DNA from: an uncultured delta proteobacterium
GTDB lineage: Bacteria; Desulfobacterota; Binatia; Binatales; Binataceae
NCBI GenBank assembly: GCA_963836955.1
Contig: CAWILO010000011.1
Location: 491,703 to 555,702, forward strand
Reading direction: 5' to 3'
DNA length: 64,000 bases
A program made the position numbers and the translations under genes. The notes beneath the pieces are model-generated. The model made no database searches. It was given only the letters and a program-made list of their open reading frames with translations, and had not been told where the DNA came from. Shown here piece after piece: positions 1 through 19,147 of the stretch (positions are counted from its first letter, which is position 1; every line of letters begins with the position of its first letter).

Positions 1-2341
1 ACGGCGTCGACTCGAAAGTGCCGCTGATCTGATCGCTTCGGCGCTGGCCCTCGAAGTAGTAGGTCTCAGTGCCGTATGGGACCTGGAACTGCAGGTGGTT
101 GCCGCGCACGAATCCTTCGATCGGCGTCGTCCCGAACCCTGATTGATGTATCTCGAGCTCGCCGTGCAGGAAGCCGTTGGGCTGCGGGCGCAATCTAAGC
201 TCCAGCTCGGGATTGCCGCCGCTGCGAAGACCGCTGATAGTACCGGTCGCGATTGTCGGCCCGATCATCCCGCCCGAAGACATCGAGCTGGTGCCCATCG
301 AGCTGCCGATCGCGCCGCTGCTGCCCGGATACGTGGCGTACGGACTGCCGCCCGCGTCGCCGAGCACCTCGAATTTCTTGGCGCCGAAGTACTGGCCGTT
401 CAAATAAAAATTGACCGTGTAGGTGCCCGGCAGAAACGCGCCGCCGCGCGAGTTGCCGACGCGTCCGCTGAACGTCACCGTCCTCATATTGGGGGAGACC
501 GGCTGAAAATCGTTGACGCTGCCGAGCGTGCGTCCGTCGGGTCCGATATACGCCGCGTCGACGCGGTACTGATTGGGCTCGAGCTTGTAGAGGCGGTTGT
601 CGAAGCTGACCTGCCATCCGACGAACAGCACCTTCGACACGTCGAAAGAGTTGGTCACGCCCGAAAGAGCGGTTCCGGTCTTGGTGGTGTTCAGAAAGCT
701 GATATTGCGGAGCTGCAACGGCTTGGCGCGGCGCTCATCGATCATCGCGAGTTTGCGCGCCTCTTCGTCGCGCTTGCGCTGCTCTTCTTTTGCCGCGGCC
801 GCGGCCGCAGCCGCCGCCGCTGCCTCCGCGTTCTTCGCGCTGAGGTCCTGATTAACGATGAAGCCTTCCTGCGCCAGCATCTTGTCGTTCGAGTAGAGCG
901 CGACTTTGTAGGTGCCGGCGGGCTTGTCGGTCATCGTCGGCATCAACGCGACGCCGCTGAAGTCCGCGGTCTTCTGTGCGGGCCCGACAAAAATATTCGT
1001 GTCGCTCGACGCGATCTGAAGTCCGTTCGGATCGTAGAAACGCGCCTCGATCTTTTCGTCGCGGCCTTCGAGCCCGGCGAGCAGGTTCTTGAAGGTCGCG
1101 GTCCACTTCAGATAGCGCGCATTGGTCAGATCGGTGTCGTTGAATTTCGCTTGCGGCGGTGCCAGTGCGGTGCCCTCGCGCGTCGAGAGCGCCAGCGTCA
1201 TCGTCGAAAATTCCAGTGGATTCTCGCGCGCCTTCGCCAGCAATTCCTCATGCTTCCAGGGCAGTCCGTCGAACATAGGCTTGAGTCCGAGCCGCAGCTG
1301 AAGATCGGGGCTCGAGTAGAGGTAGGTGCCGCCGAACGCGGCTCCCGCCAGCACCACCAGGAAAACCAACAACCCGACCGAGCGGCTGAGCCGGCTCCGC
1401 GGCTTGCGATATTCCAGCGGCGCCTCGTCGTAATCGAGCGCCTCGACCTGCGACAGTCCGCCGGTTCCGCTGGTCGAGTCGACACGGTCGCTGTCGAGCG
1501 ACAGCCCGCGCCCATAGAGCATCATGTCGCGGAAATCCTGGACCTTCGGCGGCCGCCCGGTCATCTCGTATCCGAGAGCAGCGTCGATCGCGCCCGCCAG
1601 GTTGCTCGACACGCCGGGACGAAGATCGCGCACCGGCGGGAAACTGAAAGGCGGAAATTTTTCCGGATCGCGGCCGGTCAGCACGTAATGCAGCGTCGCG
1701 CCGAGCGAGTAGATGTCGCTGCGCGGATCGACCAGCCCCTGGTATTGCTCCGGCGGTGCGAAGCCGAGGGTGCCGATCATCGTGCCCTTGCGCGCCGCCT
1801 TGAACAGCCGCGCGATTCCAAAGTCCACCAGCACGACCCGCCCATTCGGATTAAGCATCACGTTGGACGGCTTCATGTCGCGGTAGATTATCGGCGGTAT
1901 CAGCCCGTGCAGGTACGCGAGCACGTCGCACAGTTGGCGCGCGATATCGATCACCAAGCCCTCGGGCAGCGGCTCGCCGCGCGCCGCGAGTTCTTCCTCG
2001 AGGTTGCGCCCCTCGACGTACTCCATCACCAGGTAATGGCGGTTGGCGAGTTCGAAGCGGTCGGTGATCGCGGGAATCGCCTGATGCTTCAGTTGCGCTA
2101 GCGTGTCGGCTTCGCGCGCGAAATATTCGTTGGCCTCGATCCGCTGCGCCTGGTCGATAAAGTGATCGACCATCTCCTTGATCGCGCACGGTCGATTCGC
2201 CAGCCGCTGGTCGCGCGCGAGATAGACCATCCCCATCCCGCCGCCGCCGAGCAGCCGGTCGATCGCATAGCGACCCTGCAGCACGGTGCCGGGCTCGAGC
2301 GGCCCGGTTTGCTGCGGTGAATCTTTGGGCGAGGTTGCCAT
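1..2341 (-). CDS. Membrane-anchored Hanks-type Ser/Thr protein kinase with extracytoplasmic C-terminal domains (3' end runs off the window)
   Basis: Not in the ORF track; translated by hand from ATG at 2341: MATSPKDSPQQTGPLEPGTVLQGRYAIDRLLGGGGMGMVYLARDQRLANRPCAIKEM..IIYRDMKPSN..LVDFGIAR..GTLGFAPPEQY..RSDIYSLG. This is followed by the hydrophobic segment VGLLVFLVVLAGAAFGGTYLY, and the frame stays open to position 1. Confidence 0.93.
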   Translation of the reverse strand, partial: MATSPKDSPQQTGPLEPGTVLQGRYAIDRLLGGGGMGMVYLARDQRLANRPCAIKEMVDHFIDQAQRIEANEYFAREADTLAQLKHQAIPAITDRFELANRHYLVMEYVEGRNLEEELAARGEPLPEGLVIDIARQLCDVLAYLHGLIPPIIYRDMKPSNVMLNPNGRVVLVDFGIARLFKAARKGTMIGTLGFAPPEQYQGLVDPRSDIYSLGATLHYVLTGRDPEKFPPFSFPPVRDLRPGVSSNLAGAIDAALGYEMTGRPPKVQDFRDMMLYGRGLSLDSDRVDSTSGTGGLSQVEALDYDEAPLEYRKPRSRLSRSVGLLVFLVVLAGAAFGGTYLYSSPDLQLRLGLKPMFDGLPWKHEELLAKARENPLEFSTMTLALSTREGTALAPPQAKFNDTDLTNARYLKWTATFKNLLAGLEGRDEKIEARFYDPNGLQIASSDTNIFVGPAQKTADFSGVALMPTMTDKPAGTYKVALYSNDKMLAQEGFIVNQDLSAKNAEAAAAAAAAAAAKEEQRKRDEEARKLAMIDERRAKPLQLRNISFLNTTKTGTALSGVTNSFDVSKVLFVGWQVSFDNRLYKLEPNQYRVDAAYIGPDGRTLGSVNDFQPVSPNMRTVTFSGRVGNSRGGAFLPGTYTVNFYLNGQYFGAKKFEVLGDAGGSPYATYPGSSGAIGSSMGTSSMSSGGMIGPTIATGTISGLRSGGNPELELRLRPQPNGFLHGELEIHQSGFGTTPIEGFVRGNHLQFQVPYGTETYYFEGQRRSDQISGTFESTP

Positions 2342-2368
2342 CGTCAAAAGCCGGCGCTTCGTCTGCGC

Positions 2369-4411
2369 CTAGCTTGCATACACTACGATCACCGAAATGT
2401 TATCGGTACCGCCGCCGGCATTGGCCGCGACGATCAATTCGCGCGCCGCGTCGAAGGGATCGGCGTTGCGCCCGAGGATGTCGTGGATCTGATTGTCGCT
2501 GACGTGCGCCGTCAAACCGTCGCTGCACAGCATTAGCTTGTCTCCGCGCTTGAACTTCAGCGAGACCGCCTCCGCTCCCGCCGGACCGCTCTGGCGCGCG
2601 CCGAGCGAGCGTGTGATCACGTTCTTGTGCTCGTGCGTATGCGCTTCCTCGGCAGTTATCTGCCCGATTTCTACCAGCCGCTGCACCAGTGAATGATCCT
2701 TCGTGACCTGGCGGAGCGTCGCGCCTTCCATCAGATATCCACGGCTGTCCCCGACCCAGGCCACCGCGGCATATGGGGGCGTGACCAGCGCGCAGACGCC
2801 GGTCGAACCCATTCCGCGAGACTCGGGATGGCTCGCCACATAATCGATAATCCTGGAATTCGCTTCCTCGAGCGCGCCGGTCAGCAGCTCAGCTCCGTTT
2901 GTAACTTCTCCATGTGCGCTTTCAAGCCGCGTTTCAATGTAACTCCGGATCGTCTGGACGGCAATTGCAGAAGCGACTTCGCCCGCCTCCGCACCGCCCA
3001 TCCCGTCGGCGACGACGTACAAATGACTTTGCGCCGGCTCGACCAGCGACTCGCGTGTGTACTCGAGCGCCAGCACCGAGTCCTCGTTATGCTCGCGCAC
3101 GCGGCCGACATCGGTCATCGCCGCCGCGCGCAGCCGGAACGCACCACCGAGCGCAATCAGCTCGGCTTTGAACTCGTCGATATTCGGCCAGCGGTCCGCG
3201 GGATTGAAAGCAATAGCGCGGCGAATCGCATTCTCCAGCCGCGGCGAAACTACGTGCGGAGGGTAGAACTGAACCGGACCCGCTTCCTCGCGCCAACTCT
3301 CGCTGGGTATCCTCGCGCCCGTGAGCCATGTGTAAAGGAGGGCGCCGGCCGAAAAAATATCGGCGCGCTTGTCCACCTTTTTGCCCCGATAAATCTCGGG
3401 CGCCGTGTAGCCGTCGTTGAAAATCGGCTCGCTCTGAAGCTCGTTGTCGTTGCTGACGTAGTCCAGCCCCGTGAGCTTGAGCCGCCCGTCCTTTGCGACG
3501 GCAACTGATTCGGGGCAGATGTCGTTGAGGCGCAGCGCACGGCGATGTACAAACGAAATCGCCTGGCAGACCTGCACCGCAGCAGCGATAGCATCCGTCT
3601 CGGACATTTTCCCCGAACCGCGGCGAATCGGCTTGAGTTCCTCGTCGGCATAAACCAGGTACACGCGGCCGTTCTCCGCGAAGCCTTCGGTCGCGCGCTG
3701 GAATGCCGGATGACTGATCGTCTGTGACAGGGCGAGCACACGGCCGAACACTTCGCCGAGATCTTCACCGACCGGCGGCGACGTATCCTCGTGCGCGCCG
3801 TCGTCGCTCTCGAGATCCTCCTGAGTTTCGGCTACGACTACCGCTTCCGCGGCTTCGCTCGATTCGTCCGGAGATGCGTTCTCGGCAGCCTCTTCGATTG
3901 CAGCGGTGCTTGGCTCGGCCTCGACTGTCGACTGCGCGCCTTCTCCCGACGCGATCGCACTCGACGACTCCACGTGCGAGCTCGACGCGTGCTGCTGTGG
4001 CGCTGGCGACGCGGTACCGTTTGTCTGCGCAGCCGGGGGTCTCAACTCCGCCGTCTTGGCGCTCGGCCCATTGGGATCCTCGACCCGCGGCGCAGGCTTC
4101 GGCGTCTCGACGACCGGCGCTTCTTCGACAACTTCCGCCGAGGGATTCGGACCGAAGCGCTCGCGCAATACGATAGATTCGGTTTTGTCGTCGCGGACGC
4201 GTTTTGCGCGGTAGCGATTTTCTATCGACGTCTGACTCGACAGCGCGACTATCTCGATTCCGCGCTTCAACGACGCGCCTGCCGTCAGCGGCGTCGGCTG
4301 CGTCGGCGATTGCGAGGCGGATGCGGCCGACTTGGACAACCCCTGGCCGCATCGATCGCAGAACTTGGCGTCGTCGGGCGCCTCTTGGCCGCATTCGGGA
4401 CAGGTGATCAT
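2369..4411 (-). CDS. Double zinc ribbon + degenerate kinase domain + PP2C/PPM (Stp1-like) phosphatase fusion
   Basis: N-terminal CPECG..CDRCG; kinase-like LNDICPES, GYTAPE, DIFSAG; PP2C motifs DVGRVREHNED, VADGMGG, WVGDSRGY, LCSDGL, GGTDNISVI. Confidence 0.92.
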   Translation of the reverse strand: MITCPECGQEAPDDAKFCDRCGQGLSKSAASASQSPTQPTPLTAGASLKRGIEIVALSSQTSIENRYRAKRVRDDKTESIVLRERFGPNPSAEVVEEAPVVETPKPAPRVEDPNGPSAKTAELRPPAAQTNGTASPAPQQHASSSHVESSSAIASGEGAQSTVEAEPSTAAIEEAAENASPDESSEAAEAVVVAETQEDLESDDGAHEDTSPPVGEDLGEVFGRVLALSQTISHPAFQRATEGFAENGRVYLVYADEELKPIRRGSGKMSETDAIAAAVQVCQAISFVHRRALRLNDICPESVAVAKDGRLKLTGLDYVSNDNELQSEPIFNDGYTAPEIYRGKKVDKRADIFSAGALLYTWLTGARIPSESWREEAGPVQFYPPHVVSPRLENAIRRAIAFNPADRWPNIDEFKAELIALGGAFRLRAAAMTDVGRVREHNEDSVLALEYTRESLVEPAQSHLYVVADGMGGAEAGEVASAIAVQTIRSYIETRLESAHGEVTNGAELLTGALEEANSRIIDYVASHPESRGMGSTGVCALVTPPYAAVAWVGDSRGYLMEGATLRQVTKDHSLVQRLVEIGQITAEEAHTHEHKNVITRSLGARQSGPAGAEAVSLKFKRGDKLMLCSDGLTAHVSDNQIHDILGRNADPFDAARELIVAANAGGGTDNISVIVVYAS

Positions 4412-4417
4412 GCGCCG

Positions 4418-6115
4418 CTAGCCTCTCCGAAACTGCAATATAGCACCACCGAGCACCACCTGGTCTCGATCTTTTAATTTGTAAAGCTGGTCGCGTCCGA
4501 GTTTGCCGCGCCCCGCGATATAAGTGCCGTTCAGGCTGCCGAGATCGCGGATGAAGTAATCCGCGCCGCGCAGCACTATCTCCGCATGGCGTCGCGACAC
4601 GCGATCGCCGTTGTGCGCCAGCTTCTTCAGATCGATGTCGAGTTTGTCGCCACCGTCCTGCGATCGTCCGATCGTGGTGCGCATCCCGAAAATTCCGAAC
4701 TCGATATCGTCGCCGCGCGAGACCAGCTTGGCCGGCGCAACGGATAGGTCGGCGCCGTTTTTACTGTTACCGAACAGTCCGTCAGATGCTGGCCCGGTCG
4801 AAATCGGTGGCGAGTAATTGCGCGACGAAGACGAGCGCGAACCCGTCCGCGATTTCGTGTCTGCCGGCGTCGATTCGCCGGTCGACCCTGACCGCGACAC
4901 GTACGGCGCCGCGGCCGCAGGAGGATTCAGCTCCTTGGTCTTCGCCGTCGATGACGGGTTTGGCGACCGCGACGAAAGCCGCGACTTGAGCCGCCGTTCG
5001 ATTATGCTGCGCGCCCTGCCGGTCAGCTCGATTGCTTTTTTGATCTGCGGCGCGACGATCTTTGCCGCCGTGCTACCCGCGCTGGAGATGTTGCCGTTTT
5101 TGATTTTCTCCGCGACTGGCTCGTTCAGCACGATCGTCGGCATCGTGGATACTGGCGGCTTGGATACTAGCGATTTCCATGGTGTCAAGCGCGACGGCTC
5201 GGGCGTTGGAGAGCTGTTCAGCACAACGGTTGACTGCGTGGAAATACGGCTCGGCGCACCCGCAAGGCTCGCGCTCCCGCCCAATTGTCCCGACTTATTC
5301 TCGGGTGGCGGCTCCGGCAGAGCGCGCTTCATCTCTTTTGCCGACACCTGCCGCTTGTTCACGTCCTGCTCGAGCGCGCGCATGACTGCGTCTGCAGTCT
5401 TCGGCGAAACTTCAGGCGACAGAGCACGCAGGGGAGGAAAGCTGAACGGCGGCTCGAGCTGCGGATCGCGGCCGGTCAGCAGATGATGCATCGTGGCGGC
5501 CAGCGAATAGAGATCCGAGCGCGCCTCGACCTTGCCCATGTATTGCTCGGGCGGCGCGTAGCCGACCGAGCCGATTTGCGTGCCGCGTCCACCGGGCGGC
5601 AGGAAGCGCGCGATTCCAAAATCGATCAGCATCGCGCGGCCGTCCTTGTCGATCATGATATTGCCCGGCTTCAGGTCGCGATAAATTATCGGCGGGTTCT
5701 GCTTGTGCAGAAAATCGAGCACGTCGAGCATCTGCCGCGCCCAGCGCAGCACCTTGTCCTCGGCGACTTTGCCCTTGGGCCCCAGCTTGTCGAGCACGCC
5801 CTGCAAATCGCCGCCCGCGACAAATTCCATCACCAGGTAGTGGCGCGAGTTTTCGGCGAAGTGATCGATCAGCGTCGGGATGCCCGGATGCGACAGGCGC
5901 GCGAGCACGTTGGCCTCGCGCGTGAAATCCTCGATCGCTTTTTTCTCCTGGATTCCGTCGCCGACGATCATCTCCTTGACCGCCACCGGACGGTTCGCCA
6001 GGCGCGTGTCGTTGGACAGGTACACGCGCCCCATCCCGCCGACGCCGAGCACCTTCTTGACCCGGTAACGACCGTCGAGAAGATGGCCCTCGGTGAGCTC
6101 CTCACCCGCATTCAT
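4418..6115 (-). CDS. Ser/Thr protein kinase with C-terminal FHA domain
   Basis: GVGGMGRVY, VAVKEM, YRDLKPGN, DFG, APPEQY; Ser/Pro-rich linker; FHA motifs IGR..VSRRHA..DLGSLNGT. Confidence 0.95.
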   Translation of the reverse strand: MNAGEELTEGHLLDGRYRVKKVLGVGGMGRVYLSNDTRLANRPVAVKEMIVGDGIQEKKAIEDFTREANVLARLSHPGIPTLIDHFAENSRHYLVMEFVAGGDLQGVLDKLGPKGKVAEDKVLRWARQMLDVLDFLHKQNPPIIYRDLKPGNIMIDKDGRAMLIDFGIARFLPPGGRGTQIGSVGYAPPEQYMGKVEARSDLYSLAATMHHLLTGRDPQLEPPFSFPPLRALSPEVSPKTADAVMRALEQDVNKRQVSAKEMKRALPEPPPENKSGQLGGSASLAGAPSRISTQSTVVLNSSPTPEPSRLTPWKSLVSKPPVSTMPTIVLNEPVAEKIKNGNISSAGSTAAKIVAPQIKKAIELTGRARSIIERRLKSRLSSRSPNPSSTAKTKELNPPAAAAPYVSRSGSTGESTPADTKSRTGSRSSSSRNYSPPISTGPASDGLFGNSKNGADLSVAPAKLVSRGDDIEFGIFGMRTTIGRSQDGGDKLDIDLKKLAHNGDRVSRRHAEIVLRGADYFIRDLGSLNGTYIAGRGKLGRDQLYKLKDRDQVVLGGAILQFRRG

Positions 6116-6190
6116 GGCGATTGTCTACCAGCCCTCCTCAACTACCGCGCACGCGGCGTACTTCCGGGCGCGCCTGGAGGGAACGGAGGT

Positions 6191-6856
6191 TCAAGAGATC
6201 GGTTCTACCACCAGCTTCAAAAACGTTTTCCCGATGATCACTTCGTCGCCCGATTTGATCTCGGCGGGACTTCCCGGCGAGAGCCGCGGCTGACGATTCA
6301 CGTAGGTTCCGTTCAGACTGCCGATGTCCTCGATCGTGATCTTGCCGGCGTCGATTCGAATCAACGCATGCTTGCGCGAGATCTTGGCCTCGGGATCGTC
6401 GGCGTCGAGATCCACTTCCGGAAACGATCCGGTCTCGGGATCCCATCGGCCCACCAGGTTGTTGCCCTCTTCGAGCGGAAATTCCTGGCCCTTGCGTCCA
6501 CCGCGAACGACAGAAAGCTTCGCCTTGAACGGTGCACCGGCGGCAGCCGTCGCCGAGGGCGCACTCTCAGGGGCAGCCTCAGGTTTGATCTCACCCGTCG
6601 GAGCATCCGACTTGGGCACTTCAGTGGTCGGCATTTCGCCGTCCGGCTTCGCATCAGCGGCGAGCGAAGGAGTCGCGTTGGCGTCGATACTTTCTGCGGT
6701 CGCAGCCGGCGGCGTTTCGGTTTTAGTCTCGGCGGCAGGAGCTCCAGCAGGAACCGAGGCGGCGCTGCTGCCTGCGGCGGCGAGCTTGGCGCCGCATCCG
6801 TCGCAGTAATCAAGTCCGTCCATGTTTTCGTAGCCGCATTCGCCGCATTTGATCAT
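6191..6856 (-). CDS. Zinc ribbon + FHA domain protein
   Basis: CGECG..CDGCG; Ala/Pro linker; FHA motifs VGRWD..ISRKHA..DIGSLNGTYVN. Confidence 0.93.
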   Translation of the reverse strand: MIKCGECGYENMDGLDYCDGCGAKLAAAGSSAASVPAGAPAAETKTETPPAATAESIDANATPSLAADAKPDGEMPTTEVPKSDAPTGEIKPEAAPESAPSATAAAGAPFKAKLSVVRGGRKGQEFPLEEGNNLVGRWDPETGSFPEVDLDADDPEAKISRKHALIRIDAGKITIEDIGSLNGTYVNRQPRLSPGSPAEIKSGDEVIIGKTFLKLVVEPIS

Positions 6857-6932
6857 GGTCTGAGCCCTCGCAGGTGAGTTCGAAGTATCTGTCCTCTACC
6901 GTTCACTAAGTCTTACTTTTCTCCCGATAAAA

Positions 6933-8237
6933 TTATTCCGACTTCTGGAAATCCTTCAACGCTTCCGGATCGAGCATCTGGGTCTTGCGCACCACCGCCT
7001 GCGCCTGCAGCAGCGTAGTCTTCGCGGCCTTGGTCTGCAGCGTCTGCGTCTTCTTGATCTGATCCATCAGGCCCGCCAGCGCCTGCGTTGCCTTGACGTT
7101 GCCCATCCGCTGCGTGCCCTGCAGCGCGTTGCCGAGCAGCCGGGTGGCACGATCGACGTTGCCGGCCTTCAGCTCCTCTTCGGCCTTCGCCTGCAGCTTG
7201 GCGATCGAAACCTGGTCGACCAGGTTCATCACGCGGCCGTTGCGCTTGCTGGTCAGCGTGCGATCGAGCGTGTAGTCAACCGTCAAATCGCAGGCCACGG
7301 TGTTTTCGCCGCCACCCGGCACTTCATAATGAAAAGTGCTCTGCAGAATTCTGACCTGCCCCGGCTTGCGCGGCGGCAGCACCAGCGTCAGCAACACCGA
7401 TCCGGGCACTCCTGCCTGCAGGTCGCCTATCTCGTAGCTGATTTTGCGATCCTCGCCGACCAGCGGTGTACCGAGCACGTAAATTTCCGGCGACGCGCGA
7501 AAGGCCTCGCGCACCTGCACGCCCTGCGACAGCGTCACCTCGATTCGCCCGTTGCGCAGGCTCACCGAGCGCAGGCCCTCGAGCTCGTCTTCGAAGATAT
7601 GAGGAATCTCGGCGGGATCGCCGATGAAATGATATTTGCCGTTGGAGTCCTGCGCGATTCGCTGTAGGAGCTTCTCGTTGAACTCGACGCCGACGCCCAT
7701 CGTCGAGAACGAAATCTGGTCGCGATTTTTCTCGACCAGCTCGATACATGCTGTCTCTTCGTAGGTCTGACCGTCGGTGAGCACCAACACGCGATTGAGG
7801 CGATCGGGGCTCAGATTTTTCTTGACCTCTTCGATCGCCGCGCGCATCCCGAGCGCCATCTGCGTGCCGCCGCCGATCTCAAGCAGGTCGATATCGTCGA
7901 TCGCCCGCTTGATTGCGGCCTGGTCGCGCGCTTCCTCCGGGGTGATCAGCACCTTCGCCTTGTCGGCGAACGCTACAATCGAGACCTTGTCGTCCGGTGT
8001 CAGGTTGTCGGCCAGGAACTTGACCGCCTCGACGACGAATTCCAGGCGCCGCTCGTCGTACATCGAGCCCGAGCGATCTATCACTACGCCAAGGTTGAGC
8101 GGCATCCTGCTCCCACCGCCCGCGCCACCTCTACCCCGGGCAACAGCCTCGAGCAGCACGTAGAGTACGAAGTTTTCCGCGCTGGAGAGCACATGTTCGC
8201 TGCTCGCCAGCGCCTCGAAGCTAAGCGGATCGGCCAT
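6933..8237 (-). CDS. von Willebrand factor A (vWA) domain protein with C-terminal helical extension
   Basis: Intact MIDAS: VIDRSGSM, GGT, LTDG; followed by a beta-sandwich-like region and a helical tail. Confidence 0.9.
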   Translation of the reverse strand: MADPLSFEALASSEHVLSSAENFVLYVLLEAVARGRGGAGGGSRMPLNLGVVIDRSGSMYDERRLEFVVEAVKFLADNLTPDDKVSIVAFADKAKVLITPEEARDQAAIKRAIDDIDLLEIGGGTQMALGMRAAIEEVKKNLSPDRLNRVLVLTDGQTYEETACIELVEKNRDQISFSTMGVGVEFNEKLLQRIAQDSNGKYHFIGDPAEIPHIFEDELEGLRSVSLRNGRIEVTLSQGVQVREAFRASPEIYVLGTPLVGEDRKISYEIGDLQAGVPGSVLLTLVLPPRKPGQVRILQSTFHYEVPGGGENTVACDLTVDYTLDRTLTSKRNGRVMNLVDQVSIAKLQAKAEEELKAGNVDRATRLLGNALQGTQRMGNVKATQALAGLMDQIKKTQTLQTKAAKTTLLQAQAVVRKTQMLDPEALKDFQKSE

Positions 8238-8457
8238 TCGTCAATCTCCCGAGACTAATTGTAGATTTAAGCTTAGAGCCTTGGCAACCGACCTATTAGA
8301 ATACGAACGGAGCGCGGGTAAACCAAGCCCCTCGGTAGCAATACAGTAACTATTAGGACGTTGCGGGGTTAATCCCGATACAACAGCTACCGGCGCAGAA
8401 TTAATATAGTCACGATCCAGCTTTAGCCCACATCACCCCGCCATTGAGAGGATTCCC

Positions 8458-8841
8458 ATGCGAACTGCCAACAAGCACATCCGCCACGGAGTCGGCAGCG
8501 TCCGCCCGTATCTATACGGCCGCCTGGATATGCTGGAACTCGTCAAACGGGCATTCGGCGCGGTGGAACTGGAACACCTGAAGATGGGCAACGGCGCACA
8601 CGTCGAGGCGAAAATCGGCGACTCGATGGTCGTGATGGAAGTCAGCGACCCGCCCCACCCGGGCGCAAAGCCCGCGTCGATTTACGTCTACGTCGAGGAT
8701 GTAGACGACGCCTACCAGCGAGCACTGGCCGCGGGCGCCACCTCGGTGACGGCCCCCGAAAACAAGCCCTACCAGGAGCGCGCCGCCGGCATAAAGGACT
8801 CCTTCGGCAACATCTGGTACATCGCAACGTACACCGGGTGA
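8458..8841 (+). CDS. VOC/glyoxalase (PhnB-like) family protein
   Basis: VRPYL..HVEAKIGDS..YVEDVDDAYQRAL..YQERAAGIKDSFGNIWYI; GAGG RBS upstream. Confidence 0.88.
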   Translation: MRTANKHIRHGVGSVRPYLYGRLDMLELVKRAFGAVELEHLKMGNGAHVEAKIGDSMVVMEVSDPPHPGAKPASIYVYVEDVDDAYQRALAAGATSVTAPENKPYQERAAGIKDSFGNIWYIATYTG

Positions 8842-8897
8842 TCGAAAAAGAGCGCGACCGCAGAACCCCGCATCCTGCTTATTGCCTGGTAGTCGGC

Positions 8898-9043
8898 ACC
8901 TAACCCCTAATCCCTAGGGAAGGGAACCCGATTGCCGCCGACCGAGAGCAAAGTAGTGCGCTGCGCGCAACTTTGCGATTGATACCGGGTGCAGGGGTCA
9001 CTCCTGCCGAGGGTAGTGTGAAACCCACCGCGGGTTTCACATT
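8898..9043 (+). repeat. Intergenic multi-hairpin repeat, family A, copy 1
   Basis: Core GACCGAGAGCAAAGTAGTGCGCTGCGCGCAACTTTGCGATTGA..GTGCAGGGGT..CCTGCC..GTGAAACCCACCGCGGGTTTCACATT is shared with 13041-13195, 14599-14778 and 27126-27370. Confidence 0.95.
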
Positions 9044-9116
9044 TGATTAAGTGATTTACCCTTCCCCTCCGCCGCGCTGGATGCCCTCCGCAAAAAAGCG
9101 TAAGAGAGTAAGCGCT

Positions 9117-10283
9117 ATGTCTTTAAAAGGTAAATGCGCTATCGCCGGGCTCGGCCAGACCCGGATGGGTAAAAACTTCGATCATCCCGGACCGATCGGC
9201 TTCGCTGCCGAGGCCGTCAATCTCGCGCTCGAGGACGCCGGCCTTGAGCGCTCCGACATCGACGGCCTGCTCGTCAATCCCGGGATCACCTGGTTCAACA
9301 ATCCGATGGCGTCGACGTCGCTGCAGAACGCGATGGGCATCCGCGACCTCCGCCTGACTGCGACGATGAACCTCGGCGGCGCGACCGCGGCGGCGATGCT
9401 TATGCATGCCGCTCAGGCTATCGACGCCGGCATGGCCGAGGTCGTCGCCTGCGTGTTCGCCGACGCTCCCCTCCGTCCACCTTCGCCCAAGGGCAAGGAC
9501 GCCGGCTCTGCAGCCTCCTACGGCTTCGCCCAGGGTCTCAACGCGCACTACGGCCAGTTCGGCGTCAACGCTCAGTATGCGTTCGTCGCCCAGCGCCATA
9601 TGTATCGCTATGGGACCACCAACGATCACCTCGGCGCCGTCGCGGTATCCGAGCGCAACTGGGCCAACTTGAATCCCGATGCCCAGTTCCATGACACTCC
9701 GATGTCGATGGCGGACTACCACGCCTCGCGATGGGTGGTTGAGCCGTTCCATCTCTACGACTGCTGCCTGGTTTCCAACGGCGGTCTTGCGGTTATCGTG
9801 ACTTCCGCCGAGCGCGCGAAGACCCTGAAGTGCCCGCCCGTGTACATCCTGGGGATGGGGCAGGGTCATCCCGGCGGCGATCCGCTCGACACGCTGGTTT
9901 CCGGAGCGCCGATCGCCAAAGATACCGCCTTCAAGATGGCTGGGATCAAGCTGGGCGACGTCAACTTCTGCGAGCTCTACGACTGCTATACTTTCACCGT
10001 GCTTGTCACACTCGAAGACTACGGCTTTTGCAAAAAGGGCGAAGGCGGACCCTTCGTCGCCAGCGGCGCTATCGGCCCGAACGGCTCGCTTCCGGTCAAT
10101 ACCGGCGGCGGCCAGCTCAGCTCCTTCTATATGTGGGGGATGACCCCGGTCGCGGAGGCTATCGTGCAGATGCGTGGGGATGGAGGGCGGCGGCAAGTGC
10201 CAAAACACGACGTTGGACTCGTTTCAGGCAATGGCGGTATCCTTGCAACGCACTCAACGCTCGTTTTGGGTAACCAACCGTAG
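9117..10283 (+). CDS. Thiolase-superfamily protein, Ltp2-like (SCP2-type) probable aldolase
   Basis: Start chosen at ATG 9117 (MSLKGKCAIAG). The usual nucleophile-Cys position reads LGGAT; ELYDCYT and NTGGGQLSSFY motifs are present; a DUF35 gene follows. Confidence 0.85.
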   Translation: MSLKGKCAIAGLGQTRMGKNFDHPGPIGFAAEAVNLALEDAGLERSDIDGLLVNPGITWFNNPMASTSLQNAMGIRDLRLTATMNLGGATAAAMLMHAAQAIDAGMAEVVACVFADAPLRPPSPKGKDAGSAASYGFAQGLNAHYGQFGVNAQYAFVAQRHMYRYGTTNDHLGAVAVSERNWANLNPDAQFHDTPMSMADYHASRWVVEPFHLYDCCLVSNGGLAVIVTSAERAKTLKCPPVYILGMGQGHPGGDPLDTLVSGAPIAKDTAFKMAGIKLGDVNFCELYDCYTFTVLVTLEDYGFCKKGEGGPFVASGAIGPNGSLPVNTGGGQLSSFYMWGMTPVAEAIVQMRGDGGRRQVPKHDVGLVSGNGGILATHSTLVLGNQP

Positions 10284-10837: not shown

Positions 10838-12016
10838 TTGCTGCTCGATCAAAAGTATTTCCAGCGTCTCATCGCGAGTTCGCCGGATATCATAATTGCC
10901 GTCGATAAGGACGGCATCGTCAACTATTACAACGACGGCGCACGCACCAGCCTCGGCTACAGCTCCGACGAGATGATCGGCCAGAACTGCACGCGCATCT
11001 ATCCGTCGATTGATGAAGCGCGCCGCGTAATGAAAGCGATGCGGGATTCTACCGACTCCGGCAAAATCGCCAGCTTCGAGACCATCTTCCGCGACAAGGG
11101 CGGTGAACTCATCCCGGTCATGATCTCCGGCGCGCTCATCCACGACGACGAGGGCAACGAAGTCGGATCGATCGGTTTCGCCCGCGACATCCGCCGTCTG
11201 CGCCGCGCGCAGCAACTCGCGACCGCCGGCGAAATAGCGGTCAGCCTTGCCCACGAGATCAACAATCCGCTCGAATCGATCACCAACAATCTCGAACTGC
11301 TCTCGCAATGCGTCCAGGGGCACCTTAGCGAGTCCGAAAAAGTCGTCGAGAACGAACGCTTCGACTCGATTCGAAATTCCCTGGAACGCGTGCAGGCCAT
11401 CGTCCGCCGCCTCGATGAGATGGCCCGCAAGGGCGAGTACGAGACGCGCGACTACCTGGCCGGCAAGCGGATGGCCGACCTGGCTCCGCGCGAAGATAAA
11501 GTTCATACGCGGCCCCATGACGCGCCGCATCTGGTTGCCGAGCAATCTCCGCTGGCCGGGATGTCGGTGCTGGTGCTCGACGACGATACCGCCGTCGTCA
11601 ACTCGATGGCCGACCTGCTGCGCGCCGAGAAATGCATCGTGCACTGCGCCACGCGTCCTTCGGCCGCATTCGGAATCCTGCGCAACGTCAAGCTCGATGC
11701 GGTTATTTCCGACGTCGTGATGCCCGAGATGGACGGGTACGACTTCTATCTCAAGGTGAAAGAAGAGATGCCGTCGTTGCCGGTCATCCTGATGACGGCC
11801 TACTACTACGACAAGGATCACATCCTGAAGCGCTCGCGCCTGCGCGGCCTCGAAGGCGCGCTGTTCAAGAAGCCGGTAAATCCCGGGAAGCTGCGCGCGA
11901 TGCTCCTGCAATTGCGCCAGAAAGCGGCCCAGGAAAAAGCCAACGCAAGAGCCGCAGCGATAGCAGCCAAATCCGCCGCCGTAGAATCAACACCAAAACT
12001 AATCCCCCAGTCCTGA
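10838..12016 (+). CDS. PAS + HisKA (DHp) + receiver domain protein lacking an ATPase domain
   Basis: PAS (SPDIIIAVD..YNDGA..LGY); H-box LAHEINNPL; receiver VLDDD..ISDVVMPEMDG..LMTA..KKP; no N/G1/F/G2 boxes. Confidence 0.85.
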   Translation: MLLDQKYFQRLIASSPDIIIAVDKDGIVNYYNDGARTSLGYSSDEMIGQNCTRIYPSIDEARRVMKAMRDSTDSGKIASFETIFRDKGGELIPVMISGALIHDDEGNEVGSIGFARDIRRLRRAQQLATAGEIAVSLAHEINNPLESITNNLELLSQCVQGHLSESEKVVENERFDSIRNSLERVQAIVRRLDEMARKGEYETRDYLAGKRMADLAPREDKVHTRPHDAPHLVAEQSPLAGMSVLVLDDDTAVVNSMADLLRAEKCIVHCATRPSAAFGILRNVKLDAVISDVVMPEMDGYDFYLKVKEEMPSLPVILMTAYYYDKDHILKRSRLRGLEGALFKKPVNPGKLRAMLLQLRQKAAQEKANARAAAIAAKSAAVESTPKLIPQS

Positions 12017-14471: not shown

Positions 14472-14598
14472 TCGAGCCCCTTTCCGGCCAATCCGGTCCA
14501 AAAAACAACAGTCTGTTCAGTATCACAAATGGTACGCCGCTTCGAACCCAAGGTTTCGCTGGCCCATTCGGGATTCTGTTTCTGAGGTAATACACGGA

Positions 14599-14778
14599 AC
14601 CTAACTTCTAACCCCTTCCCGCGAGGGAAAAGGCAACCGGATTTGCGCCGACCGAGAGCAAAGTAGTGCGCTGCGCGCAACTTTGCGATTGATACCGGGT
14701 GCAGAGCCTGTCCTGAGCGAAGCCGAAGGAGGTTACCCCTGCCCAAGGAAGCGTGAAACCCACGGCGGGTTTCACATT
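14599..14778 (+). repeat. Family A repeat, copy 3, with a nested ~26-bp insert at 14705-14730
   Basis: Same core; AGCCTGTCCTGAGCGAAGCCGAAGGA interrupts the GCAGGGGTTACCCCTGC hairpin. Confidence 0.93.
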
Positions 14779-14839
14779 CAATAACGTTCTTTCTGCCGCG
14801 ACTTGACAGCGCACCGTATTCGGACGGAAACCCAGATCG

Positions 14840-15286
14840 ATGGCTGTCACATTCCGACGCGCGACTGCTGCCGATGCGCCCGATGTCGCTACTGTATACA
14901 TCGCTTCGCGGCGCGGCGCGGCTGCCTACCTGCCGACCGTCGGCACTGACGCGGAGATTCGCGCGTTCGTTATCCATCAGATGGTGCCGGAGCGCGAGAC
15001 CTGGGTTGCCGAGCTTGACGGGAGAATCGTCGCGGTGCTGGTGCTCGACGGCTACGAGGTCCAACAATTTTACGTTGCGCCTGACTATCAGCGATCCGGC
15101 GTCGGCGATGCGATGCTCGCGCATGCCAAGCATCTGCGCCCCGCCGGACTTCGTCTCTTCACGTTTCAGCGCAATGCTCCTGCGCGCCGCTTTTACGAGG
15201 CGCGCGGCTTCATCGCAAAGGAATTTACCGACGGCGCCACCAGCATGGAGCGCGAGCCCGACGTGCTCTATCAATGGACGCCGTGA
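14840..15286 (+). CDS. GNAT family N-acetyltransferase
   Basis: FRRATAADA..FYVAPDYQRSGVGDAML..NAPARRFYEARGF. Confidence 0.9.
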   Translation: MAVTFRRATAADAPDVATVYIASRRGAAAYLPTVGTDAEIRAFVIHQMVPERETWVAELDGRIVAVLVLDGYEVQQFYVAPDYQRSGVGDAMLAHAKHLRPAGLRLFTFQRNAPARRFYEARGFIAKEFTDGATSMEREPDVLYQWTP

Positions 15287-16312: not shown

Positions 16313-16930
16313 TCACCGCGTAGCGCCCGCGGTTTCCGCGATCGCGATACGCACTGCGTTCTCCATCAGCGTCAGCGGCATGCTGGGCAGGCTCCGATGG
16401 CGTCCGGCCTGGCGCGCCTCGTATGGCAGGTGGATGAATCCGACCGGGACGCCGGGCTTGCGCCGCAGGTAGTGCAGCGCCGCGCACATCAGCGCGTTGC
16501 ACGCATACACGCCGGCGCTCAGCGATACGCTCGCGGGAATCTCCTTGCGATCGAGTTCGCGAATGATCGCGCGCAACGGCAGTCGCGAGAAGTACGCGTC
16601 GGGCCCTCCGCGAACGACTGGCGTGAATCCTGGATCGCCTTTTTTGGAGAGCGCGCCGCGCTCGTCGGCCAGATTGATCGCGATTCTTTCCAGCGAGATC
16701 GCCGGCCTGCCGCCCGCCTCGCCGAGACCAATTACCGCTCGCGGCCGGTAGCGCACGATCGCGCCGGTAATTCGCCGCGCCGCCTTGGCGCATCCGACCG
16801 GCACGCGGACCGACTTTATCTGCAGCCCGCCGATCACCTCGCCATCGAGACGCCGCGCAATTTCCCACGACGGATTGATCCGCTCGCCGCGAAACGGCTC
16901 GAAGCCGGTGAGAATCAGGATCGGTGGCAT
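16313..16930 (-). CDS. pcp: Pyroglutamyl-peptidase I
   Basis: LTGFEPF..NPSW..LERIAIN..SAGVYACN..GFIHLP (Glu/Cys/His triad context). Confidence 0.92.
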   Translation of the reverse strand: MPPILILTGFEPFRGERINPSWEIARRLDGEVIGGLQIKSVRVPVGCAKAARRITGAIVRYRPRAVIGLGEAGGRPAISLERIAINLADERGALSKKGDPGFTPVVRGGPDAYFSRLPLRAIIRELDRKEIPASVSLSAGVYACNALMCAALHYLRRKPGVPVGFIHLPYEARQAGRHRSLPSMPLTLMENAVRIAIAETAGATR

Positions 16931-17014
16931 TTCCGTCTCCTCGCCCTGTAAGGGAGAGGATGAAGGTGAGGGTCCTTTTGCAGCGCGCTATTTCGCGCGC
17001 GATTCAGGATTCTG
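16928..17014. repeat. Family B REP-like repeat, copy 1
   Basis: CATTTCCG..AAGGGAGAGGAT.AAGGTGAGGG..CAGCGC..CGCGCGCGA.TCAGGATTCTG also occurs at 29026-29117. Confidence 0.8.
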
Positions 17015-17054
17015 CTTCGTCTCTGAACGCGTGTCTGAATATTACGCATGCCGC

Positions 17055-17882
17055 TCACTTGCGCCGCGGATGCTCAATTGGCAGGTCGTCGCGATTGCCC
17101 CATTCTGCCCACGACCCGAGATAATTTCTCACCTTCGGATAGCCTGCGAGCTTGAGCGCGATGTACGCGTACGCGGCGCGGTAGCCGCCCTGGCAATACG
17201 GCACGATCTCGGCGGCGGGATCGAGGCCGAGTGCTTCGAACTGCGCGCGCAGCTCGTCGGGAGATTTCACGGTTCCATCGGGGGCGAGCGCCGCAGTCCA
17301 GTCCTGATGGTACGAGCCTGGGATTGCGCCTCTGTGTTTCGCTCGGATGCGTTCGCTGAAATATTCCGCGTCGCTGCGGACGTCGAAGATTTGCACGTCG
17401 GGACGTCCGAGCTGGCTCACCAGATGCGGATAGGTCGCGAGAATCTCTGCTCGCGCATCAAGCTGAAAGTCCGTTGGCGCAAATTTGTCGACTTTAGTCT
17501 CCAGGTGTTCGCCCGCTATCGTCTTGAGCCCGCCGTCGAGCATTAGCGCCCGTGGATGCCCGGCGTATTCGAGCGCCCACTGGCCGCGCGCCGCACGCAT
17601 CCCGGATTCGTTCTCATAGAACACGACCGTCTCACTGCCACTGATTCCGAGCGCCGAAAATATCCACTCGAGTTGCCCGCCGAACTCTGCGATACCGCGC
17701 TCAGACGTATCGGTATGATGGAACGGGAAAGGATCGAAGTGCCGCGCGCCGCTCAGATGCCCGGCGTGAAAATCCTTGGCGGGCCGCGTGTCGATGAGGA
17801 TCAGATCGGCGTCGTCGCGATGCTCGCGCAGCCATCGCGCATCGACAATCAACTTTGTTTCCGAAGGTTTACCCGGACTCAA
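17055..17882 (-). CDS. Tandem-domain rhodanese / sulfurtransferase (SseA-like)
   Basis: IDTR..GHLSGA..LDGG..DVR..IPG..YCQGGYRA..NYLGSWAEW. Confidence 0.92.
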   Translation of the reverse strand: MSPGKPSETKLIVDARWLREHRDDADLILIDTRPAKDFHAGHLSGARHFDPFPFHHTDTSERGIAEFGGQLEWIFSALGISGSETVVFYENESGMRAARGQWALEYAGHPRALMLDGGLKTIAGEHLETKVDKFAPTDFQLDARAEILATYPHLVSQLGRPDVQIFDVRSDAEYFSERIRAKHRGAIPGSYHQDWTAALAPDGTVKSPDELRAQFEALGLDPAAEIVPYCQGGYRAAYAYIALKLAGYPKVRNYLGSWAEWGNRDDLPIEHPRRK

Positions 17883-17905
17883 ATTCGCCTCCGCCTCGCG
17901 CAGTC

Positions 17906-18982
17906 CTATCTGTCGATACCTACCGCTTCGCTAATAGAACGAAATCCGTCGCGACGGAGCAAGTCTGCCAGTCCCGACTTGATTCTCTCGACCACGCCCG
18001 GACCCTCGTAGATGAGGCCGGTGTACAGCTCGACCAGCGACGCGCCTGCGCGGATGTGCAACCAGGCGTCGGCGGCGCTGGCAATTCCGCCGACGCCGAT
18101 GATCGGGATCTTGCCGCGGGTGTGCGTGTAGATGTCCCGAATCAGCTCGCGCGCGCGAATCTGCAGCGGGCGGCCGCTGAGTCCGCCCGGATGCGGCGAC
18201 GAGACGCCGACAGATTCTCGCGCGACAGTAGTGTTGCACGCTACGATTCCGTCGATGCCGAGAGCGAGCGCCGTCTCGCAGATTCGAAACATCTCGTTGC
18301 GTTCGAGATCAGGCGCAATTTTCATCAGCAGCGGCGTCCGGCGCGGCGATTCGCCGGCATGTTCGCGCAGCGCGGCGAATAGTTCGCGCATCTTCTCCGG
18401 CGATTGCCAGGTACGCAGTCCGGGCGTATTCGGCGAGCTCACGTTGATTACGACGATATCGGCCAACGGCCCCAGGCGCGTCATCAGAGCGGTATAATCG
18501 GCGGCAATCCGGTCGGCGGTGGTGTCTTTGTTGGGACCGAAGTTGAGCGCGAGGCGAATCGAGATCCCAGCCTTGCGAATCCGCTCGATTCGCAATGCGA
18601 CCGCTTCCATCCCTTCGCTGGGAAATCCGAGTTGGTTGATAAGCGCGCGACGCTCGGGCACCCGCCATACTCGCGGCCGGTCGTTTCCGGGTTGGGAGCG
18701 CGGCGTAATCGTCCCCAACTCGGCGAAGCCGAATCCGAGCGTCTCCCATCCGCGGATGGCGACGGCGTCCTTGTCCATCCCGGCTGCGAGGCCAATCGGA
18801 TTGGGAAAATCGATTCCCCAGAGTTTGACTCTCAGCTCAGGCCGGTCCCGCGGCGCGGGCAAAGGCGGCATCGCCGAGAGCATCCACAGCGTCAGCCGAT
18901 GCGCATCTTCGGCGTCACGCGCGAACAGGTATCGTTTCAGGAAGTGCCGATAGACGGCGTCGATTGCTGAAACTGCGGGCAT
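17906..18982 (-). CDS. pyrD: Quinone-dependent dihydroorotate dehydrogenase (class 2)
   Basis: NPIGLAAGMDK, ELGTITP, QPGNDRPR, INVSSPNTPGLR, KIAPD, NTT, GGLSG, ELYTG; start chosen at ATG 18982. Confidence 0.95.
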   Translation of the reverse strand: MPAVSAIDAVYRHFLKRYLFARDAEDAHRLTLWMLSAMPPLPAPRDRPELRVKLWGIDFPNPIGLAAGMDKDAVAIRGWETLGFGFAELGTITPRSQPGNDRPRVWRVPERRALINQLGFPSEGMEAVALRIERIRKAGISIRLALNFGPNKDTTADRIAADYTALMTRLGPLADIVVINVSSPNTPGLRTWQSPEKMRELFAALREHAGESPRRTPLLMKIAPDLERNEMFRICETALALGIDGIVACNTTVARESVGVSSPHPGGLSGRPLQIRARELIRDIYTHTRGKIPIIGVGGIASAADAWLHIRAGASLVELYTGLIYEGPGVVERIKSGLADLLRRDGFRSISEAVGIDR

Positions 18983-19147
18983 GGCGGCTGCAACTGGCAA
19001 TTTCGCAAGCCGGTATGGATTGCGCAATCGAAAGATGGTGTGGATTAAGCAGCGCGCCCCCTGATGCAGTAGCACCGCGGCTTGGAATAAGATTTAGAAG
19101 GGCGGGGCGTAAAGCGTCCCGGCCATCTGCGGGAGGCGTGAGGTCGC

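Follow-up and report, generated by a model that had tools for sequence, protein, structure and literature searches.

A predicted phosphothreonine switch encoded by a conserved gene cluster of Candidatus Binatus

The gene cluster and its conservation

Positions 1-8237 of the DNA analysed here, a stretch of 64,000 nucleotides from Candidatus Binatus (Binataceae) that is called the window below, carry five minus-strand genes in the same orientation. The source is an uncultured soil bacterium, its genus and family being taken from the names on homologues of genes 1 and 4. In order, the genes encode a vWA protein (gene 1, 6933-8237, 434 aa), a zinc-ribbon-FHA protein (gene 2, 6191-6856, 221 aa), a predicted active kinase with an FHA domain (gene 3, 4418-6115, 565 aa), a zinc-ribbon-pseudokinase-PP2C protein (gene 4, 2369-4411, 680 aa) and a second predicted active kinase with a transmembrane segment and an ectodomain (gene 5, 1-2341). 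The open reading frame calls leave intergenic gaps of 76, 75, 6 and 27 bp. A sequence-only reading of the window had described five co-oriented genes separated by 6-76 bp, had given them this domain content and had called them a self-contained eukaryote-like phospho-switch; the measured gaps and the Pfam matches agree with that description of the genes, and the operon is indeed a self-contained one for Ser/Thr phospho-signalling, with writers, readers and an eraser encoded together. As argued below, the operon probably encodes a complete phosphothreonine switch of the type formed by the archaeal proteins ArnA and ArnB.

The window cuts gene 5 short. Its start codon is at position 2341, 780 of its 792 codons lie inside the window, and its stop lies 12 codons beyond position 1. 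Sequence past that point was taken from two relatives, L001 (98-100% identical) and L002 (a 4.58-Mb chromosome), each with 10-kb flanks; both give gene 5 a full length of 792 aa. Beyond it come two further genes, followed by gnd and zwf, and the downstream flank as a whole reads gnd, zwf, fbp, glk. Gene 6 encodes a polytopic membrane protein with five transmembrane segments and a divergent FHA domain, and gene 7 encodes a lipoprotein. The cluster is one of seven genes, the first five of which are in the window, so that the earlier picture of a five-gene operon fits the window itself and misses the two genes hidden by its edge. No genes of a type VI secretion system (T6SS) were found within 10 kb on either side, in the upstream flank within the window or in the flanks of L001 and L002. 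This bears out the absence of T6SS genes that the sequence-only reading had noted, also in the sequence beyond position 1 that it had proposed to retrieve.

The cluster is highly conserved among the Binataceae. A scan of species-representative genomes gave 273 loci with relatives of the vWA protein, and the best 80 of these, all from Binataceae, were examined, a sample that measures depth and not breadth. The vWA proteins of these best 80 loci are 78-96% identical. The five genes stand in the same order and on the same strand in 66 of the 67 Binataceae species loci long enough to judge, the single exception being a best-hit swap between the two paralogous kinases; conservation of gene order, which had been named as a check on the sequence-only reading, is thus found throughout the family. 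Genes 6 and 7 are next in line in 61/64 loci. Among the components the vWA protein ranks first in conservation and the membrane FHA protein second. In a search with the gene 4 protein, run without its low-complexity N-terminus, more than 120 Binataceae protein clusters showed 84-98% identity over the pseudokinase and PP2C region. An exact-sequence look-up of a window protein retrieved no record. The cluster is present in at least 80 species-level genomes. Because gene order is fixed and identity is high across these loci, the cluster is best described, from comparative data, as a vertically inherited and strongly constrained cassette.

Individual relatives show some local variation. In L002 the receptor kinase and membrane FHA genes are separated by a gene for a 127-aa protein (14563-14946) that has two transmembrane segments and, at its C-terminus, a CxxC...CxxC motif; this gene occurs in roughly 30 of the best 80 Binataceae loci and is missing in L001, the closest relative of the window. 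L002 also has an MmeI-type restriction-modification gene in two pieces (777 and 129 aa, 16767-19563) between the lipoprotein gene and gnd, which is not at the matching place in L001. In L001 gene calling gives the vWA protein only 308 aa and breaks the kinase-FHA gene into pieces of 347 and 88 aa (6470-9994); these breaks are probably indel errors of long-read assembly and not real pseudogenes, and in the window neither gene is broken. Contigs of one metagenome-assembled genome (MFD00731.bin.1.188) carry the full cluster twice, as the separate loci L006 and L011, which points either to a duplicated locus or to a bin that mixes two Binatus strains.

The encoded proteins

The vWA domain of the gene 1 protein (aa 46-223, bases 7569-8102; Pfam VWA, E 8e-20) is preceded by N-terminal beta-strands (aa 5-33) and followed by a beta-sandwich (aa 225-323, 7269-7565) and a Thr-rich C-terminal helix bundle (aa 334-434, 6936-7238). 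Its MIDAS site is intact, and the residues D54, S56, S58, T125 and D155 are invariant or nearly so in 35 family members. No transmembrane segment or signal peptide was found in gene 1, and its product is cytoplasmic. An AlphaFold2 model of the protein has a mean pLDDT of 88.5. The top four Foldseek matches to this model are 4FX5 (TM-score 0.73), chains A and B of 8S05 (0.65-0.67) and 5A8J (0.59), with ITIH, Sec24 and integrins ranked well behind. A profile of the 35 family members, compared with the PDB, picks out the same three structures far above every other vWA protein: 4FX5, a Catenulispora vWA protein aligned over profile positions 48-411 (E 6e-36), 8S05 chain A (5e-34) and 5A8J (1e-26). 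The entry 8S05 is titled 'ArnAB complex, an archaeal ortholog of the Sec23/24 core motif', and 5A8J is the ArnB paralogue vWA2. The tripartite ArnB fold was described by Hoffmann et al. 2019, who already noted that 4FX5 shares it (PMC6509490). Based on the profile matches, the AlphaFold2 model and the top four Foldseek matches, the modelled gene 1 protein belongs structurally to the ArnB family, with a vWA domain inserted in a beta-sandwich and a Thr-rich helix bundle after it.

The helix bundle is rich in candidate phosphorylation sites. Threonines stand at positions 365, 375, 384, 397, 399, 402, 407, 408 and 419 of the window protein, in whose last 55 residues Thr accounts for 12.7% and Ser for 1.8%; across the family Thr makes up a mean of 9.0% of the bundle vs 5.0% of the rest of the protein. 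The motif TxxL/I/V/M has the shape of a classic FHA ligand. It is found within the last 30 residues of 33 of the 35 family members (shuffle mean 17), and a version preceded by a basic residue is found in 26 of the 35 (shuffle mean 7); neither count was reached in any of 1000 shuffles, the counts being drawn from related sequences that are not independent of one another. The sequence-only reading had left the vWA protein as either an effector or a scaffold. By analogy with ArnB it is more likely to be a phosphorylated scaffold than an effector, so that the second of the two suggestions is favoured.

The neighbouring gene 2, separated from gene 1 by the 76-bp gap, encodes the putative reader. 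An N-terminal CxxC...CxxC zinc ribbon (aa 1-26, 6779-6856) is joined by an Ala/Pro/Glu-rich linker to a C-terminal FHA domain (aa 113-221, 6194-6520) in which the canonical GR, SxxH and NG residues are present. Pfam gives a clear FHA match (E 1.5e-14) and weak zinc-ribbon matches. When compared by sequence with the PDB, the protein matches OdhI/GarA (E 3e-16) and ArnA (5a8i, E 3e-10); despite the ArnA match, the FHA domain is closest to OdhI/GarA, and it also matches the FhaB/FipA and OdhI models weakly. The architecture and length of this putative ArnA/FraH-like reader (zinc finger, linker, canonical FHA) are those of ArnA.

Genes 3 and 5 encode the predicted writers. The gene 3 protein consists of a kinase domain (aa 10-267, 5315-6088; Pfam Pkinase, E 3e-40), a disordered Ser/Thr/Pro-rich linker (aa 268-470) and an FHA domain with GR, SxxH and NG present (aa 471-565, 4421-4705; E 4e-14). 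Its kinase motifs are complete (G-loop, VAVK, YRD..N, DFG, APE), and it is predicted to be an active, soluble Hanks kinase with an FHA domain of its own. The gene 5 protein has a kinase domain (aa 17-270, 1532-2293; Pkinase, E 1e-35), a juxtamembrane linker, a single transmembrane segment (aa 318-340, 1322-1390), whose hydrophobic stretch was called at aa 318-336, and about 440 further residues, of which aa 345-780 (2-1309) form the extracytoplasmic region inside the window. With all catalytic motifs present, it is predicted to be a single-pass receptor Hanks kinase with a lineage-specific ectodomain. In the AlphaFold2 model of the ectodomain (pLDDT 77.8), a helix of about 40 residues connects two beta-sandwich domains, and there is a third, beta-rich domain. 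Homologues of the ectodomain number 176 proteins, all in Binataceae. Foldseek finds only generic FnIII/Ig-like similarity at low TM-scores (RbmA, transglutaminase and complement MG domains), which is uninformative on the ligand, and neither Pfam nor Foldseek finds PASTA domains in the ectodomain.

The two kinases are 50% identical over 260 aa (E 7e-74) and share all four motifs quoted in the sequence-only reading, which had called them close paralogs. They are each other's best match, and the same is true of the two kinases encoded by a related module on a Gloeothece plasmid. Since paralogs within each lineage are mutual best matches, the kinase duplications in the Binatus and Gloeothece lineages appear to be independent, as the sequence comparison suggests.

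The gene 4 protein combines a zinc ribbon (aa 1-25, 4337-4411), a remnant of a kinase N-lobe (aa ~45-87), an acidic low-complexity insert (aa ~88-215), the pseudokinase proper (aa 216-425, 3137-3766) and a PP2C phosphatase (aa 426-680, 2372-3136). Pfam detects the zinc ribbon, the PP2C domain and part of a Pkinase domain (E 2e-14, profile positions 51-198 only), and the protein scores 240.6 bits against the NCBIfam Stp1/IreP model, whose cut-off is 230. The kinase part has no Gly-rich loop, Arg replaces the catalytic Lys of the VAIK motif, LNDICPES stands where the active paralogs have YRDLKPGN, and GLD replaces DFG; the APE motif and the helices of the C-lobe that follow it are retained. The earlier call of a pseudokinase thus holds at each of these motifs, and the kinase domain is predicted to be catalytically degenerate. 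The metal-binding motifs of the PP2C domain (NED, DGMGG, SDG, DN) are visibly intact in the translation. The protein, in which this PP2C is joined to a degenerate kinase domain, is the predicted eraser.

The N-lobe of this pseudokinase appears to be split: between the segment SIVLRERFG, with Lys changed to Arg, and the rest of the domain stands an acidic insert of about 120 residues, rich in Ala, Glu and Ser. Homologues from an Armatimonadota locus and from locus L089 have the same Arg, and the insert is absent from them. The gene 4 protein aligns with a Gloeothece plasmid protein over 431 aa, beginning inside the kinase C-lobe. A multiple alignment across lineages shows a common degeneracy, in which Lys is changed to Arg, the catalytic-loop Lys is lost and DFG is mostly lost. 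Because all of the aligned lineages have the same degeneracy, the pseudokinase state is, as far as the alignment goes, ancestral to the module.

Upstream of gene 1 lie a glyoxalase-family gene, followed by genes for a thiolase, an OB-fold protein, a PAS-HisKA-REC protein, a nucleoside phosphorylase and a lactonase; the PAS-HisKA-REC gene is found upstream of the cluster in 71/82 loci. In the window it occupies 10838-12016 on the plus strand and encodes a 392-aa protein with HisKA at aa 136-199 and a receiver domain at aa 244-356. No HATPase_c domain was detected in this protein, and there is no space for one between HisKA and the receiver. Scans for promoters and terminators gave counts no higher than in shuffled sequence and a single plausible promoter, 5' of gene 1. 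Gene 1 and the divergently oriented glyoxalase-family gene are 220 bp apart, and the minus-strand site (TTGCCA, 18 nt, TACAAT; 8258-8287) lies in this interval, about 20 bp 5' of the gene 1 start codon. It matches the consensus at 10/12 positions and, since the promoter count in the region is not above the shuffle expectation, is weak evidence.

The core module in other lineages and the proposed switch

Relatives of the core proteins reach well beyond the Binataceae. Among 1.84 billion cluster representatives searched, 244 clusters (at 50% identity) had E < 1e-30, and in most cases these proteins are about 420 aa long and align from end to end. Breadth was assessed by tblastn against plasmids and by contig look-ups of representatives of the 50% clusters, which gave 11 neighbourhoods outside the Binataceae. 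At these loci a zinc-ribbon-FHA gene adjoins in 10/11; a PP2C gene is present in 10/11, a Hanks kinase gene in 9/11 and a fusion of a kinase-like domain to PP2C in 7-8/11. Deinococcus radiodurans (L083) has genes for a vWA protein, a Ser/Thr kinase, a zinc-ribbon-FHA protein and a long PP2C. The Gloeothece plasmid encodes a vWA protein, a zinc-ribbon-FHA protein, a long PP2C, a Ser/Thr kinase with FHA, a hypothetical protein and a Ser/Thr kinase with TPR, and the Armatimonadota locus a Ser/Thr kinase, a zinc-ribbon-kinase-like-PP2C protein, a vWA protein and a zinc-ribbon-FHA protein. At the Chloroflexota locus only the pair is found. A Trichormus plasmid and locus L094 are also among the 11. 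From these neighbourhoods, a four-part core of vWA protein, zinc-ribbon-FHA protein, Hanks kinase and predicted pseudokinase-PP2C is widespread in bacteria. Its surroundings differ from locus to locus: type VII secretion system (T7SS) genes (WXG100, EssC) and WD40 beta-propellers adjoin it in L088, HicB-like antitoxin genes in L089, a gene for an 1831-aa RHS/YD-repeat protein in L090, and an FHA-sigma54 activator and zinc-ribbon-FHA-ABC transporters in L092 and L093. One shared core seems to be coupled to outputs of many kinds.

In Sulfolobus, the kinases ArnC and ArnD phosphorylate threonines in ArnB's C-terminal helix bundle. The zinc finger of ArnA binds the beta-sandwich and C-terminal domains of unphosphorylated ArnB in a loose complex; stepwise phosphorylation of ArnB then opens the helix bundle to the FHA domain of ArnA, giving a tight complex, and PP2A reverses the process (PMC6509490, PMC12852372). 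Domain identities, residue status, fold, linkage and conservation are observed in Binatus, and the order of events and the substrates can be proposed by analogy with Sulfolobus ArnAB and with the D. radiodurans operon DRA0331-0334. An extracytoplasmic cue would activate the receptor kinase (gene 5), whose phosphothreonines would recruit and activate the kinase-FHA relay (gene 3). The targets of the kinases would then be conserved TxxL-type threonines of the gene 1 protein, located in its helix bundle and tail. The FHA domain of the gene 2 protein could clamp onto the phosphorylated region, so that a loose complex, tethered through the zinc ribbon, would become tight, and this conversion might free zinc-ribbon or MIDAS surfaces for downstream partners. 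Finally, the PP2C of gene 4 would reset the switch, with its pseudokinase domain acting as a docking module that targets the cognate kinases. Because a membrane FHA protein and a lipoprotein are part of the cluster, the output points towards an envelope-linked process.

Several points weigh against this model. The kinase-substrate assignments, and the choice of the vWA tail as substrate, are drawn from analogy and from motif statistics, and the latter are affected by the relatedness of the sequences counted. Identity to ArnB is low enough that the similarity of fold and architecture would not guarantee a shared mechanism. The Sulfolobus paradigm is itself incompletely understood, in that pairwise mutation of the mapped ArnB phosphosites gave no phenotype (PMC6509490). 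No output gene, whether for a transcription factor or an effector, was found in the cluster. In addition, the FHA domain of gene 6 does not have the canonical SxxH and NG residues, and a role for it as a phosphothreonine reader is doubtful for that reason.

The cluster might instead be an anti-phage or conflict module akin to the TerY-P, actinobacterial Esr or KKP systems, in which an infection or attack sensed at the envelope would lead through phosphorylation to defence. Some TerY-P triads (vWA, PP2C and Ser/Thr kinase) do protect against phage (PMC11090510), and in the Esr pathway a vWA protein is coupled, along with a kinase/phosphatase pair and an FHA output, to epibiont defence (PMC13622651). 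Homologous modules elsewhere are found on plasmids or beside the T7SS, RHS and HicB-like genes of L088, L090 and L089, and the MmeI-type gene adjoins the cluster in L002. In the Binataceae, however, the locus is fixed on the chromosome between conserved housekeeping flanks (the PAS-HisKA-REC gene upstream, gnd and zwf downstream), and its presence in so many species-level genomes and the high identity of its vWA and pseudokinase-PP2C proteins are the opposite of what patchy, fast-evolving defence islands show. No effector such as a nuclease, toxin or NADase and no MoxR ATPase is encoded. PADLOC has no match for the vWA and FHA proteins, and its matches to the rest are generic kinase matches (PD-T4-6, MAD6, MkoA, PglW) that give no evidence of defence. 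The Esr pathway and the MoxR-vWA ternary systems resemble the cluster in having a vWA protein, a kinase/phosphatase pair and an FHA output, often zinc-finger-FHA (PMC13622651; PMC7159879), but the cluster differs from them in having no MoxR ATPase, beta-propeller surface sensor, Esx genes or effector domains, and no AAA+ or beta-propeller genes were found in it or in its 10-kb flanks. The KKP module, which is found in Pf prophages and consists of two kinases and a phosphatase with neither vWA nor FHA (PMC11341870), was rejected because the Binatus context is chromosomal, conserved across 80 species and free of phage genes, and because vWA and FHA proteins are present. A defensive role for the Binatus cluster is therefore given a low probability.

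A regulator of envelope, growth or division, like the actinobacterial FhaA-FhaB-PstP-RodA-PbpA-PknA-PknB cluster, would make the vWA protein an accessory scaffold and would have as its targets envelope-biogenesis proteins bound by the membrane FHA protein. The cluster has two kinases, one of them a receptor, a PP2C of the Stp1/PstP family above the NCBIfam cut-off, and FHA proteins that include a membrane-anchored one; the weak matches of the gene 2 FHA domain to the FhaB/FipA and OdhI models, the co-encoded lipoprotein and the universal conservation within the family, which fits a housekeeping role, point the same way. Against this, rodA, pbpA and other cell-wall genes are not in the cluster, the receptor has generic beta-sandwiches in place of PASTA domains, and the component that defines the module and is most conserved, the vWA protein, is missing from the actinobacterial cluster. 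As a statement on output this explanation is compatible with an ArnA/ArnB-type switch; as an alternative to one it is unlikely. Ordinary post-translational regulation of a T6SS through PpkA, PppA and Fha1/TagH is far less credible and, as regards linkage, effectively refuted. Kinase, PP2C, FHA and vWA parts do all occur in the T6SS threonine-phosphorylation pathway of Pseudomonas, where PpkA carries the vWA domain (PMC1262709), and that pathway likewise has a receptor kinase of the Hanks type, erases with a PP2C and reads phosphothreonine through an FHA protein. Its FHA protein is of the TagH/Fha1 family, however, and against the TagH model TIGR03354 (cut-off 120.25) those of Binatus reach 36.7 and 25.7 bits; the vWA domain of the Pseudomonas pathway is in the periplasmic tail of the kinase, whereas that of Binatus is on a separate cytoplasmic protein. 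The flanks are housekeeping in character, and neither the 10 kb upstream (in the window) nor the 10 kb downstream (in the relatives) contains T6SS structural genes.

Comparison with known systems

ArnA and ArnB of Sulfolobus acidocaldarius (5A8I, 5A8J, 8S05) are also encoded by an adjacent pair of zinc-finger-FHA and vWA genes, and ArnB has in common with the gene 1 protein the vWA domain within a beta-sandwich, the Thr-rich helix bundle after it and the intact MIDAS site. In both systems Hanks-type kinases are the (predicted) writers and a Ser/Thr phosphatase the eraser. ArnB is archaeal, however, and its sequence identity to the bacterial protein is 15-20% in the Foldseek alignments. The genes arnC and arnD and that for PP2A are unlinked in Sulfolobus, whereas in Binatus the writers and the eraser are in the same operon; the eraser is a PP2A/PPP enzyme in Sulfolobus and a PP2C fused to a pseudokinase in Binatus. 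Binatus also has a receptor kinase, a membrane FHA protein and a lipoprotein in addition to the ArnAB parts. ArnAB signalling represses motility, and the Binatus output cannot be an archaellum.

The core operon has already been studied in D. radiodurans as DRA0331-0334 (2026 preprint, bioRxiv 10.64898/2026.01.23.701218). The same four core genes are found there on one strand, encoding a vWA protein, a transmembrane kinase, a zinc-ribbon-FHA (FraH-like) protein and a long PP2C. The Deinococcus and Binatus vWA proteins are 29% identical over 392 aa (E 1e-27), C-terminal helices included, and DRA0334 and the gene 4 protein 30% over 412 aa (E 2e-32), beginning inside the kinase C-lobe. The Deinococcus operon differs in its gene order, in its single kinase and in its location on a secondary replicon, and has no kinase-FHA relay, membrane FHA protein or lipoprotein. 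The suggestion that the Binatus genes form an undescribed relay is therefore not supported: the core is widespread in bacteria and under study in Deinococcus, and the vWA and zinc-ribbon-FHA pair has the ArnB/ArnA architecture.

The Deinococcus work also bears on the pseudokinase. The region of DRA0334 N-terminal to PP2C, termed 'KI-FHA', is reported to mediate kinase interaction and substrate specificity (bioRxiv 10.64898/2026.01.23.701218). In alignments, 'KI-FHA' (aa 210-368 of DRA0334, L083:10910-12760) matches the C-lobe of the gene 4 pseudokinase, including the APE motif and the helix that follows it, and no FHA match to the region was found in Pfam at E up to 0.01. The region looks like a degenerate kinase domain and not an FHA domain. 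Because the kinase-interaction region of DRA0334 is the counterpart of the pseudokinase C-lobe in these alignments, a docking role for the Binatus pseudokinase can be proposed.

The systems to which the sequence-only reading had compared the cluster are more distant. The TerY-P triad, which includes E. coli YegL/PphC (YegK)/YegI, also has co-encoded vWA, PP2C and Hanks kinase genes and is hypothesised to work as a switch that depends on metal and on phosphorylation (Anantharaman et al. 2012 and Gao et al. 2020, via PMC11090510). The TerY/YegL vWA proteins are about 200 aa long and, unlike the gene 1 protein, have neither beta-sandwich nor helix bundle; the kinases end in a zinc ribbon or OB fold, whereas gene 3 ends in FHA and gene 5 in a transmembrane segment and ectodomain; and neither FHA proteins nor a pseudokinase belong to the triad. 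Membership in the TerY-P/YegL group was rejected when BLASTP against YegL (219 aa) gave E 0.038 and no real alignment. The PADLOC TerY model did not match gene 1 at E up to 10, a test that is not very sensitive since YegL was also unmatched. With KKP having neither vWA nor FHA, ArnA/ArnB and DRA0331-0334 are closer to the Binatus cluster than any of these comparators.

A broader possibility, which is tentative and somewhat doubtful, is that the quartet of vWA protein, zinc-ribbon-FHA protein, Hanks kinase and pseudokinase-PP2C is an ancient phosphothreonine cassette of many bacterial lineages, with ArnA/ArnB as a stripped-down relative, and that in the Binataceae it has turned into an envelope sensor that is essential and found throughout the lineage. 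The cassette would be marked by a PP2C with a pseudokinase of its own for targeting (a conserved change of Lys to Arg, DFG lost), a feature so far mis-annotated, for example as the 'KI-FHA' of DRA0334, and the novel receptor ectodomain, membrane FHA protein and lipoprotein would be Binataceae additions. If this were true, the bacterial operons would widen the prokaryotic ancestry of the Sec23/24-core fold, since ArnAB has been called an orthologue of that core motif, and would offer a complete operon-encoded system to dissect.

The Binatia are abundant soil bacteria that remain uncultured, and their signalling is without experimental characterisation; the operon is among their most conserved regulatory cassettes. 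With writer, reader, eraser, scaffold and sensor encoded together, it offers a compact system for rebuilding a bacterial phosphothreonine switch in vitro, and the module is well suited to asking how pseudokinase domains target phosphatases, the pseudokinase-PP2C fusion being identified here as a recurrent, conserved part of it. The comparison joins three unconnected literatures, on archaeal ArnAB, on Deinococcus DRA0331-0334 and on the cyanobacterial FraH-like zinc-ribbon-FHA proteins. Seen against these systems, the Binatus cluster is not a new class of system and is an elaborated variant of a known, widespread phosphothreonine switch; what is new is the second, receptor kinase with its novel ectodomain, together with the membrane FHA protein and the lipoprotein.

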